A stretch of DNA of 64,000 nt from Okamejei kenojei. Lineage: Eukaryota. This document shows positions 17,767 through 26,494 of this stretch, piece by piece. The stretch covers positions 19,902,001 through 19,966,000 of the forward strand of contig CM069158.1 of the NCBI GenBank assembly GCA_035221665.1, read 5' to 3'. Position numbers and translations under genes: made by a program. Below the pieces are notes generated by a model. It saw nothing but the letters and a program-made list of their open reading frames with translations, searched no databases and was not told where the DNA came from. Position 1 is the first letter of the stretch. Each line of letters opens with the position of its first letter.

Positions 17767-17921
17767 TTAGCTCACAGAAGATTCTCCATCATTCAGAGAC
17801 AAGTAAGCTTTGGCTTTGTTGTACAGACAATAATGCTGCGCCATGAAGATTAAATCAAACAAGATGGATACCAGTCCAAGGCCAAACTTGGTCGGATCTC
17901 CAAACAGCAGCATCCACTCAT
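17767..17921 (-). CDS. CTNS: Cystinosin-like, coding exon 10 (last)
   Basis: (D)[52 protein letters not shown] acceptor at 17923-17922; TAA at 17769-17767. Confidence 0.93.
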
Positions 17922-18697
17922 CTGCAGGAAGGAAAAAAGTTAAACTTCAAAAAATGCCCAGTACAAGCACCATGATGAAGAGGTAGCTTTGGCCATTTTA
18001 GAATCTAACAAAATGATCATCAACAGATCCAGGAGTTCAAGAGATTCAAGCTCTCAGTGCTAACATCTAGTGTGTACGTAGCCTGACCACTAACGGTTAG
18101 ACAATAGAATACATGACAGGTGTTCTAGTGATGGAAACAAACCACAGCATAAATGAGTTTGAGATATTGTGGGCAAGCAGTTGCTTCAGTTGGAAGCTGC
18201 CAAACTTGGGTTGTTGAAGGCAAGCAGGTCCTTGCTGCTCAAAACTGCTGAATGCTAGTCATGGTCAGGCCAGACAGCATCTGAAGAGGAACAATGCTGA
18301 CCTTCATCAGAACCAGTATTTAAATCAACATTAACCTTGTTGCAGCTGACTGATTGTTTTTGATTCCCAGGATATGTTCAGATTTTCCTCAAACAGGCTA
18401 CAAAATGCCTTGTTCAGTTTATTTTCATGTGCATGGAGATAGTGAAGAGCTTTAGTTGTGCTCCATCTAGTCAATGGAAATACCGGACAAATATAATCAA
18501 GCTGTCCACAGTGATGGGTTTAAAGTAGGGAATGATTGTAATGAACAGGTTAGAATTGCAAAAGACCTTGTCACTGGGTGAGCAGCTAGGATGAAAGTCA
18601 AAATTAATGTCTGATCACTAAATTGCGATCACTGGACGAAGGAGTAGGTACAGAGGGCCGACTTCATTGCAGAGCAACTATTTCAATTAAGTCTTAC

Positions 18698-18815
18698 CAT
18701 TGTTGTAGGACTGCAAGAACATCTGTAGAAGGCTGAAAATACCCCCAACAAAGTCCAGGAGTGTGTTCCAAATGCACCAGCCAACTGTACTTTTCCTTCG
18801 GTAGTTCATACAAGC
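18698..18815 (-). CDS. CTNS: Cystinosin-like, coding exon 9 (118 nt)
   Basis: [43 protein letters not shown] boundaries. Confidence 0.93.
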
Positions 18816-19340
18816 CTGGCGAAAGAATTACCGGTGAAACCAATTCCTGCACTAATCAAGTAACCATTTGCCTCCTGTACAAGGATATCTAGAAACTCAG
18901 GAAAAGTTAGCAGTGAGTCTAGATTTTGGATCAAAGGTGCAATGGGGTCTCAAGATTAACACAAGCTAGTGGTACCCCCAGGTAACCACCTTAGTCTGTT
19001 GTGAAAGGAAAACCCAACAGTAAGCATTTGTTGAAAATATTTGGTTAGATAGCACCTGCCAATCAGTTTTTACATTCTTGTACCAAAAATCTTCACATCA
19101 ATGCTTCAACCAGTTGTGGGAAAGAAGTATCCACTTAATTGTTAAGGAGTCTGCACCAGAGTCTAGTGACCAGAGTCACGCACTAATTGGATAAAGCCAC
19201 CTGGGTGTCAGGCAGCACAAGCATGCAGTTAGTCAGGTCCAAGATTTGAACACAGGCACGATTTTACTATTAGATGTCAGTGGTTTAATCAAAAGCCATC
19301 TGCTCACATTGGTTTGCTCCTGCACAACTCCCATGCTTAC

Positions 19341-19511
19341 CTGAGGAATGTATTTAATGAGGACAATGCCTAGTTTGATGTAGGAGAAATAGTAGACAAG
19401 TTGGAGCCATGTTATTTGACCACTTGCAGCCAGGATGATGAAGATTATAGCAGGCATCCATGCAGCTACGAGAAATCCAGTAGCAATCTTGGACACTCTC
19501 TGCGACCCCCG
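19341..19511 (-). CDS. CTNS: Cystinosin-like, coding exon 8 (171 nt), second PQ motif
   Basis: RGSQRVSKIATGFLV...FSYIKLGIVLIKYIPQ; AG/GT boundaries. Confidence 0.93.
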
Positions 19512-20237
19512 CTGTATAACAGAAAACAAATGACCAGCAACATTAAGAACCAAAATGTCAATGGCTTGGAACACTTTACAGCATTTGATAGCTACACAAT
19601 TAGTCAAAAATGTGGCAATTGGGAAAATATTGATTAGATGGATCAGAGCTTTCAATTGAACTGTACTGATTAAATGAACTTCAAGTACAAGGTGATCAAA
19701 TTTCAAACCCGTTTAATTGCAGTGTCCCAATCCTATGTGGATGTGCAAGTGATCTGATACAAATCCGGCAGATGCTTTAACAAAAGTATTTAGTCCACAA
19801 GGGTTGGCAATGGGGACCCCCACAGATAATGGGGAAGGAAGGAGGCTGCATGGGAGAGCACAAGCTGGAATAGCCTGCCTTCAGCCCAAGGAACTTCATA
19901 TTATTTTCCAGAATTTCTTTCAGTGTGAAGATCAAAGTGAAAGTATCCAAGGTCAAATTATGTGATCTCCTCTGGACTCCTTTATATAGAAATAATGAAA
20001 TATCACAAGCAAGGCAAGCATTATGAACAGAAATGCCAAATCTATAATTTAACAGGAAAATTGAAAATGTAATTAGCAGAAACTTCAAAATACAACAATA
20101 ATGCCAAGGTGGAAGCCAACTGTTGGGTCTGGGATTGAGAGAACAAGTTCTTCCAGGAGCCTGTGGGTCACAGCAAATCCAGTTTAATTATTAAATGGGA
20201 GCCTACAAATCCAACAGCCGGCAAATGAGAAACTGAC

Positions 20238-20357
20238 CTCATAAATGAAACATTGATAGATGGTGATGAAAGTGAACAAGATTGCATGGAGACTAAAAAA
20301 CACATCATTTGATTCCACAGGGTTCACTCCGTCTGGATGACATTGAAGAAATTGTTT
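20238..20357 (-). CDS. CTNS: Cystinosin-like, coding exon 7 (120 nt)
   Basis: [44 protein letters not shown] boundaries. Confidence 0.93.
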
Positions 20358-20991
20358 CTGGAAAGACAAGTCAAAAACACCATTACATTTAAACAAACAG
20401 TTCAAAGCGTTGGAAATGTCCAAGAATCTTGCAATGGATCAGTATTCTCATCCCCTGTGTCTGTCCCAATAAACTAGAAGCAAAATCAGATTTAAAGTAT
20501 AACTAAAGATAATTTTATTATCCAAGAGTTGTGATACTTCCCATTGGAAAACCATCGTCTCTACTGCAGAAGGACTTGCTACATACAATACTGGTGGAAA
20601 TCTGTACTTCAGGCTCAGTAATCTGGTCTCAAGTTCACTACCAGGGCATGGACCAAAGTTGGATTGATCTTCCAGTAAATGACAAATTCAACATCTTATT
20701 TTCTCAAAAGTTGCCATTTGATAAATTAAACACTGTACAACTCACTCGCCACTCCACAATGTTTTAACACCAAACAGATCATAATCTGAATGTCAAACAT
20801 TGGAGAGGACAAGTGAAATTGTTGCTTAGAATCAGCTGGTGAATATCAGCTATTTATTCTGGAGCATTCCCCATGTTAATTGGTTTCCTGAGATTAGAGC
20901 ATAATGGTAGGTGTTTGACCCAAGCTATTAAGCGAGCCAAGCTAATCAAATGCAAAGATAGCCTCAATTCAAATAGGCCAACAGTCTTTAC

Positions 20992-21091
20992 CTTCACACA
21001 GGGAATCCAGAAGAGGCCAATGTTAAACACTCCATATGCTAAATGGCCAGTCAGATTCAATGCCAGGAAATCAAAATTCAATCCAATTACA
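20992..21091 (-). CDS. CTNS: Cystinosin-like, coding exon 6 (100 nt)
   Basis: VIGLNFDFLALNLTGHLAYGVFNIGLFWIPCVK; AG/GT boundaries. Confidence 0.93.
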
Positions 21092-24758: not shown

Positions 24759-24843
24759 TTGTTCTGGGAGCTCAACAATATTAATTTGCTTAGATGAGTA
24801 AATTACAGCAAATCTGATGACTATGGCCTCTGGCAGTGGAACA
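24759..24843 (-). CDS. CTNS: Cystinosin-like, coding exon 3 (85 nt)
   Basis: VPLPEAIVIRFAVIYSSKQINIVELPEQ; donor GTAAGT. Confidence 0.9.
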
Positions 24844-24959
24844 CTGGAGAGGGTAAAAATAGACTAATTATTAGGGTACAAATTGCATCAACATAGTTTC
24901 TTTAAAAAGTCCAAACTAAACAAAGTTCAAGTTTCCAATAGATTGCACATGTGCCTTAC

Positions 24960-25038
24960 CTTATGACAATTTTAACTGTCTGAATGCTGTCAACTGTCAG
25001 ACTAACAACTTCTGGTACAATCAATGTCTCCGATGCTT
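24960..25038 (-). CDS. CTNS: Cystinosin-like, coding exon 2 (79 nt)
   Basis: EASETLIVPEVVSLTVDSIQTVKIVI; AG acceptor, GTAAGG donor. Confidence 0.9.
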
Positions 25039-25103
25039 CTGAAAAGACAGAGGTCCACTGTTTTGTCAGATAGAAGTCATTTACAATCCACACCCCAAAT
25101 TCA

Positions 25104-25357
25104 ATTTAGTTTAGTGATAGTGTAGAAACAGTCCCTTTAGCCCACCGAGTCTGCACAACCAGCAATCGCCCTCTACACTAGCACTATCCAACATAACAAA
25201 GACAATTTACAGTATCCAATTAACCTAAAAACTTGTAGGTCTATGGGAGTAAATCAGAGCTCCCAGAGAAAATCCATGCAGAGAATGTACCTGTAGTCAG
25301 GATTGAACCCAGGTCCCTGATGCTGCGAGACAGCAACACTAACACCACCTCGCCACC
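25104..25357 (-). mobile_element. tRNA-derived SINE
   Basis: (TTTAG)n tail on the plus strand; B-box-like GGGTTCAATCC on the minus strand. Confidence 0.65.
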
Positions 25358-25636
25358 CACAAATTGCAAGTCTCATTTGCAAGGTCTACCACTCAAGGCT
25401 TACCTCGAGGCCAAACAATGATGGAAGCCTCCAATTGTGGAAAATGGCACATCATTGTCACGAAATGCTCATCATTCCCCTGGACCCAAGCTTCGAGGTT
25501 ATGTACCCTTATTTTTAAGGCCAGGACACAGATCAAGGCAACTACTGAGGCAGCAAGTGTGGTGCAAGAATTGGTGGTGGTCGGACAGGAAAAAGTAACT
25601 TTTCACATTGAAAACATTTCTCAGATACAAACTTAC

Positions 25637-25697
25637 CAATTTGGAGCATGTTGACTAGACTACAACAGAGGATCATAAGGGGTACTGGGAGCTTCAT
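25637..25697 (-). CDS. CTNS: Cystinosin-like, coding exon 1 (signal peptide; exon spans 25637-25713)
   Basis: MKLPVPLMILCCSLVNMLQI, 61 coding nt, donor GTAAGT, acceptor AG at 25715-25714. The ten exons sum to 1131 nt (376 aa plus stop), with exon phases matching human CTNS as recalled. Confidence 0.88.
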
Positions 25698-26494
25698 ATC
25701 TCTGGCTGTAGACCTGTAGAAGAAGAAACATCAAAACCAGCTTTTCTGCATCCATTCAGACAATCCATTAGGAGAATATGAGATAGCTAACCATTGAAGA
25801 CTTACTCCATCTTTCATTTATCACTGCTATGTCCAAGATGACCAGAAGATTAACCAAAGTAAAGTTAACCAAAATGTGGTTCTCAGTTGATTCAACCCTC
25901 AATTTTGTCCAAAAGCCCATGTGCAATGGCACAAAAACAAAACTGTTACCAATTGACTGTCCAAGAATTTTAATTATTTAAAATTTTAACATTCAATCAG
26001 GTTAACATGGTGATTGAATACAAGGAGAGCCCCATTTATTTGCAAGTTGGGGGTGGCAACAGCATTTCCATTCACCTCCACTGACAGATTTGTTAAAAGA
26101 GCAAACCTTTGTATTAAAAAAGTGCTATGAAGTTCATTGCAGGATTTTGACCCAGTGAAGAGAAACTGATACACTGAAGTCATTTGTGACATTGTGCTGT
26201 ATACATCTACAGCCCGTGTCCTTTGTAAAATGTAATGTAGCAATTCTACACCACTACAGGTGGAGGAAGACAGTCAGTGGTAGCACTGAGACAAGGCAGG
26301 ATCACCACAGGCAAACAGGGTGTAGCATTGTGGTTACAAGCCAATTAGGCAACTCATTAAGTGGCAAAGCAACTTACTCGGTCAAAGCAGTTTATGCAAC
26401 TAAAATGTGTGGCATCAAATGTGACATTAGCCAATAACCCTTTCAATTTTGGTTTATTAGCTTCTGGTATGTTGGATTAGTTCACTAGACCAAT

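Follow-up and report, generated by a model that had tools for sequence, protein, structure and literature searches.

The lysosomal signal of cystinosin is a C-terminal G-Y-x-x-hydrophobic motif of the GYDQL type, and CTNS, the cystinosis gene, is generally treated as single-copy in vertebrates. The closest described systems are human cystinosin (PDB 8DKE, 8DKW, 8DYP), a PQ-loop fold of seven transmembrane (TM) helices with a luminal beta domain, encoded by ten coding exons (PMC5309805), and Arabidopsis cystinosin (PDB 7ZK1; PMC9385667), which is without the luminal domain. Sharks and rays are represented in RefSeq by automatic 'cystinosin-like' models (XP_078280196.1, XP_032902601.1).

Here we analyse a window of 64,000 nucleotides from the skate Okamejei kenojei (GCA_035221665.1, contig CM069158.1, positions 19,902,001 to 19,966,000 of the forward strand). 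It carries a cystinosin gene, referred to as copy A, while copy B designates the second CTNS locus of the same genome. Copy A is an intact second cystinosin gene that probably arose by local duplication in the ancestor of living cartilaginous fishes. Its product would still export cystine by proton coupling, but with its binding or sorting retuned. It is a lineage-specific duplication of a known transporter and not a new kind of system. The RefSeq models cited above are orthologues of copy A, but their names are machine labels, either of which is found on both A and B without telling them apart. A literature search with few subscription journals found no paper on a cartilaginous-fish cystinosin pair.

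Gene structure of copy A

Copy A lies on the minus strand and is composed of ten coding exons, the same number as in human, running from the ATG at 25697 to 17767 in window coordinates. The 1131-nucleotide frame encodes 376 residues plus the stop and has no internal stop. Residues named by human position follow human cystinosin numbering, transferred by alignment.

25637..25713, minus strand: coding exon 1; ATG at 25697, 61 coding nucleotides, likely a hydrophobic signal peptide
24960..25038, minus strand: coding exon 2; 79 nucleotides, luminal beta domain
24759..24843, minus strand: coding exon 3; 85 nucleotides, luminal beta domain
23883..23986, minus strand: coding exon 4; 104 nucleotides, GC donor (GC-AG intron); both luminal N-glycosylation sequons, residues 104 and 107
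21840..21977, minus strand: coding exon 5; 138 nucleotides, TM1, first PQ motif, W138 equivalent
20992..21091, minus strand: coding exon 6; 100 nucleotides, TM2; His at human position 170 (codon 21045-21043)
20238..20357, minus strand: coding exon 7; 120 nucleotides, TM3, D205 equivalent
19341..19511, minus strand: coding exon 8; 171 nucleotides, TM4-TM5; K273, K280, second PQ motif; copy-A-specific Val at 277 (codon 19364-19362)
18698..18815, minus strand: coding exon 9; 118 nucleotides, TM6; N301, D305; copy-A-specific Trp at 300 (codon 18770-18768)
17767..17921, minus strand: coding exon 10; 155 nucleotides including the stop, TM7; K335, S342, D346; tail with a Y-x-x-L motif
17066..17766, minus strand: likely 3' untranslated region; covered by public contigs at 17294-17831; ATTAAA at 17363 and 17071

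All nine acceptors are AG, and eight of the nine donors are GT, the donor after exon 4 (23883) being GC. The AG acceptor that precedes 25713 points to a further, non-coding exon upstream. Splicing was compared with public contigs from three runs of one study, presumed to be RNA and coming from a close relative as judged by their differences. The exon 7/8, 8/9 and 9/10 junctions are present in these contigs exactly as predicted, and a pair of loose contig ends agrees with the 4/5 and 5/6 joints; since the former matches the joint made by the GC donor, it confirms this donor. Some of the contigs also span pieces of introns, which indicates that DNA or unspliced RNA is present. The listed pieces, three others being outside the count, show 3 differences over about 606 coding letters and 22 over about 896 non-coding ones (p 0.003), and all three placeable coding differences are synonymous. 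With nine introns, an open frame, spliced contigs and coding sequence more conserved than non-coding, copy A is neither a retrocopy nor a pseudogene. The earlier note on this DNA had described a complete 10-exon, 376-residue cystinosin-like gene that is not a retrocopy, which the frame, splice sites and spliced contigs bear out; it did not mention the GC donor.

The PQ-loop family PF04193 matched four of the nine scanned window frames at E<0.1, two of them above the cut-off. Family-profile and structure tests were run on P0001, the closest named relative or orthologue of the window protein, which scores 305.7 bits against TIGR00951 (lysosomal cystine transporter; cut-off 192.35) and matches human cystinosin with an E-value of 2e-133.

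A second CTNS locus on the same chromosome

A genome-wide PF04193 search returned eight matches: two in copy A, two in the second CTNS on the same contig, and four in other PQ-loop genes. In a protein search of the genome (24 scored candidates), 16 of 16 matches fell inside copy A or copy B, so that two CTNS loci only are present. Copy B (C28:14174494-14191547, plus strand) is complete, encodes 377 residues and lies 5.7 Mb from copy A, which is also on C28. The two copies share 56% protein identity and 71% DNA identity over 890 nucleotides, with identical intron phases and equal sizes for seven of ten exons. The earlier note had left open a retained duplicate or a relocated CTNS, and had named a single CTNS in the genome as the finding that would go against it; two complete loci were found, so the retained, intron-containing duplicate stands and the lone relocation falls.

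The neighbours of copy B are RAB8A and CIB3 (preferred over CIB2 by a narrow score), then TAX1BP3, placed tail to tail with it, WDR55 and PTBP1. Standing beside TAX1BP3, copy B is the positional orthologue of CTNS. Fragmented frames resembling a retrovirus envelope, read by eye, lie between TAX1BP3 and WDR55 at C28:14238545-14239973.

Like copy A, copy B has His170 and all the transport residues discussed below; unlike copy A, it has T277, G300, five sequons, a GT donor at intron 4 and its own fixed N204S change beside D205. Intron 4 is therefore GC-AG in copy A versus GT-AG in copy B. Ser204, next to the luminal-gate aspartate, was seen in 32/32 B rows (14 + 18), versus Asn in 231/231 other rows.

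Distribution and phylogeny

Among sharks and rays, 20 named species have an A-type protein; the chimaera also has two genes. In all 15 species that list both genes, the chimaera included, A and B are on one contig, as judged by equal contig sizes; their accession numbers are 8 to about 800 apart, which is uninformative on adjacency. Heptranchias has two near-identical A-type models on one contig (P0021 and P0128), possibly a recent extra copy.

Three trees were built from subsets of the matches (29, 30 and 51 rows, one invertebrate row being dropped from the last), one of them under a site-mixture model. All cartilaginous-fish copies form a clade, with bootstrap and Shimodaira-Hasegawa-like approximate likelihood ratio supports of 98/95, 95/91 and 97/90. 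Chimaera b is sister to A (98/95, 96/91, 98/93), chimaera a is sister to B (support 88-94), and the window protein is closest to that of the skate Rhinoraja. Approximately unbiased (AU) tests rejected a grouping of A with bony vertebrates (p 0.026); for independent duplications in chimaera and in elasmobranchs the rejection was narrow (p 0.048). His170 is found in 36/36 cartilaginous rows versus 3/211 others. With the chimaera split dated to 421 million years ago (PMC3692497), the duplication was most likely local, on one chromosome, in the ancestor of living cartilaginous fishes and older than about 420 million years.

Fold, transport residues and copy-specific changes

The AlphaFold model of P0001 (predicted local distance difference test 85.7) superimposes on human cystinosin (8DKW) with a template-modelling score of 0.96 and a root-mean-square deviation of 1.6 Å; over the human structures the scores are 0.95-0.96, with 59% identity in the fold match. 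From the model and the alignment, the seven TM helices, the two PQ motifs and the luminal beta domain are all kept. The residues K273, K280, D305, D205, K335, D346, W138 and P283 have been shown or proposed to carry transport (PMC9385667), and all are shared by copy A and human cystinosin. K273, K280, D305, K335, D346, P283, N288 and N301 are kept in 17/17 A rows, W138 and D205 in the 15/15 A rows that have the column, and the window protein itself carries K273, K280, D305, D205, K335, D346 and W138. Because all these transport residues are kept, copy A would be expected to go on transporting cystine together with a proton.

Copy A differs from the human protein by F170H, T277V, S298C, G300W and V302T, by having two luminal sequons and no terminal GYDQL-type signal, and by being one of two copies, not at SHPK. 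Its TM5-TM6 changes are at 277, 298, 300, 302 and 310. Val277 is found in 17/17 A rows and in 15/15 further ones, against Thr in 229/230 others; Trp300 is likewise in 17/17 and 15/15 A rows, against Gly in 230/230 others (the bony group of this alignment includes a few rows placed by exclusion). Position 277 shares one helix with both lysines, four residues past K273 and three short of K280, and so likely lies on the cavity face. A proteins carry 2-3 luminal sequons; B proteins carry 5-6, and bony rows average 5.6. Most A rows have a Y-(M/L)-S-L tail motif, without the preceding Gly and not terminal; in the window protein it is Y-L-S-L followed by nine residues.

The plant protein keeps the equivalents of T277 and G300, unlike copy A, and shares with it the His at human position 170. 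This residue, common to all cartilaginous cystinosins, corresponds to plant His56 and is also seen in a Xenopus row, while most animals have Phe. In the plant protein, His56 widens the working pH range (PMC9385667).

Neighbourhoods of the two copies

The following features flank copy A in the window.

5497..6276, plus strand: last exon of a paralemmin gene; earlier exons more than 50 kb to the left of the window
33634..47055, plus strand: TRIM gene (RING, B-box, PRY/SPRY) lying between copy A and FAM32A; its first exon is GC-rich
49570..56845, plus strand: FAM32A
60063..60104, plus strand: AP1M1, coding exon 1 (read by eye); matches to AP-1 mu1 come from its later exons, which lie outside the window

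These are the flanks that the earlier note had named. We take the paralemmin to be PALM rather than PALM3. No TAX1BP3 remnant was found near copy A, within the window or 100 kb on either side. Intron 1 of AP1M1 holds a C-rich low-complexity tandem array (60163-61800, GC skew -0.59).

The earlier note had also taken SHPK and TAX1BP3 as the usual neighbours of CTNS. This holds for TAX1BP3, copy B standing beside it in the RAB8A-CIB3 block, but not for SHPK: at the EMC6-SHPK-TRPV locus on C26, no CTNS match was found in 200 kb (best E 0.87). There EMC6 and SHPK are head to head (C26:25946000-25972100), with no CTNS or TAX1BP3 match between them and SHPK-type exons beginning within about 18 kb of EMC6. 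A Pfam FGGY_N search of the genome gave FGGY and glycerol kinase exons but no SHPK, which was located via EMC6; it is named from exons read by eye, its position between EMC6 and a TRPV gene, and FGGY-family matches, none of them SHPK-specific.

In human, the interval between SHPK and EMC6 holds CTNS and TAX1BP3. According to Table S2 of PMC9664204, this interval measures 33 kb in human, 39 kb in Xenopus and 13 kb in duck, whereas it is below 8 kb in 9/9 compared fishes, salmon being left out: the genes overlap in catshark, are 1.7 kb apart in elephant shark and 0.9 kb apart in gar and zebrafish, and less than 8 kb apart in reedfish, eel, medaka, cod and pike. The gap is 1.6 kb in coelacanth. 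Since fishes and coelacanth have SHPK next to EMC6, the human SHPK-CTNS-TAX1BP3-EMC6 order is likely derived: the SHPK-EMC6 pair would be the older arrangement, and CTNS-TAX1BP3 would have been inserted into it in the tetrapod lineage. For gar, coelacanth, frog and duck, this insertion is read from the gap sizes.

Zebrafish ctns maps to chromosome 11 (PMC5309805) and shpk to chromosome 5. In euteleosts, tax1bp3 accompanies rab8a in the lpl block, which also carries cib3, fam32a and ap1m1 (PMC12111056), and chicken GGA28 has AP1M1, FAM32A, CIB3 and RAB8A together (PMC11050503). We infer that CTNS-TAX1BP3 was originally in the RAB8A-CIB3-FAM32A-AP1M1 block, of which each skate copy retains one half; the window neighbourhood is then likely half of the ancestral home of CTNS. 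CTNS would have been duplicated within one ancestral RAB8A-CIB3-CTNS-TAX1BP3...FAM32A-AP1M1 block, which a later rearrangement divided. A scheme with a head-to-head A/B pair between PALM and PTBP1, separated by a single inversion, was set aside for want of proof, teleost tax1bp3 being in the rab8a-fam32a block.

In human, CIB3 is adjacent to FAM32A and PALM to PTBP1. Relative to this order the joins are crossed in the skate, CIB3...PTBP1 and PALM...FAM32A, and each of them has a CTNS copy.

Discussion

By homology with the known cystinosins, luminal cystine would be held by K273, K280 and D305, a D205-K335 bridge would shut the luminal gate, and the PQ hinge would open the cytosolic side. Copy A has lost the hydroxyl of T277, which from helix spacing would lie on the helix face between the two lysines, and has gained a Trp next to the gate residue N301. 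Together with the fewer sequons and the changed tail, these changes point to an altered affinity or compartment, and such a subfunctionalisation would most likely explain why both copies were retained. A further-reaching form of this idea, that copy A serves another disulfide or another compartment (cell surface, secretory organelle) through T277V/G300W, sparse glycans and a new tail, and has been kept by sharks and rays in that role, a natural second cystinosin function in vertebrates, for more than 300 million years, is tentative and rather doubtful.

The age and mode of the duplication can be read in other ways. If it was an older local event in the jawed-vertebrate stem, bony vertebrates would have kept the copy beside TAX1BP3 and lost A, and the grouping of the cartilaginous copies would be due to early gene conversion, convergence or slow rates. 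Copy B indeed resembles bony CTNS by its TAX1BP3 neighbour, T277, G300 and 5-6 sequons, and a clade of B, chimaera a and bony vertebrates survives the AU test (p 0.085 and 0.089; log-likelihood 8.8-9.3 lower). We nevertheless regard this history as unlikely: the three trees, including the one under the site-mixture model, place the duplication after the split of bony and cartilaginous fishes at 95-98, His170 is common to all 36 cartilaginous rows, and neither V277 nor W300 occurs in the 92 bony-vertebrate rows, which are the top matches of one search and not a census. The earlier note had suggested a copy from whole-genome duplication that was lost in mammals. An ohnologue pair from the vertebrate whole-genome duplications, with one member lost in bony vertebrates, would agree with the deep divergence (56% identity) and with the early duplication that the AU test leaves standing, but such a pair would lie on different paralogous chromosomes among paralogous neighbours. 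Both copies are instead on C28, they share one contig in every species listing both, the cartilaginous copies form a clade, and their neighbours are not paralogous but two halves of a block that is contiguous in chicken (PMC11050503) and teleosts (PMC12111056); this origin is largely refuted and highly improbable.

Other alternatives concern function. A changed substrate (such as a cystine analogue, a mixed disulfide or some other disulfide) or action outside the lysosome would fit the hydroxyl lost between two essential lysines, at a position where 130/137 distant representatives have Thr or Ser and one has Val, as well as the several TM5-TM6 changes, the fewer sequons and the new tail. However, every residue essential for cystine transport in PMC9385667 is kept, the fold is unchanged and a Y-x-x-hydrophobic sorting motif remains, which makes this improbable. 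It is also conceivable, though we doubt it, that A and B have one and the same role and owe their retention only to dosage or tissue-split expression, their fixed differences being neutral. Their branch lengths are similar and Trp300 is common in distant homologues, but the 32 A rows all have V277 and the 32 B rows all have S204, at otherwise near-invariant sites.

Several points weigh against the favoured account of a local duplication in the cartilaginous-fish ancestor followed by a division of labour. The tree outgroups are distant and comprise no lamprey, hagfish or amphioxus rows, chimaera b is a long branch, and the AU test leaves the B plus bony clade unrejected. Evidence for one chromosome in other species is indirect, being drawn from equal contig sizes, and in an older draft of Chiloscyllium punctatum A and B are on separate short scaffolds. 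The public runs come from one study and are presumed to be RNA. The chimaera A-type gene retains T277 and G300, and the chimaera B-type gene has only three sequons. Among distant representatives, position 300 is Trp in 14/136 and Gly in only 63/136, so that G300W may matter little; it was weighed as a unique functional switch, a role weakened by these counts. As position 277 is near-invariant and position 300 variable in these representatives, T277V is the telling change and G300W a weak one. Finally, the similar branch lengths of A and B give no rate signal of new function, and a division of labour fits them better than decay or rapid novelty.

These results also bear on the human gene. The common 57-kb cystinosis deletion also removes SHPK (PMC6437787), a consequence of the head-to-head layout of SHPK and CTNS, and synteny suggests that the promoter shared by human SHPK and CTNS arose by the CTNS-TAX1BP3 insertion. 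For the family as a whole, the skate genes belong to a pair kept since the Silurian-Devonian, which offers natural variants at the binding helix and the gates (277, 300, 204, 170), open to assay with the human structure as reference.

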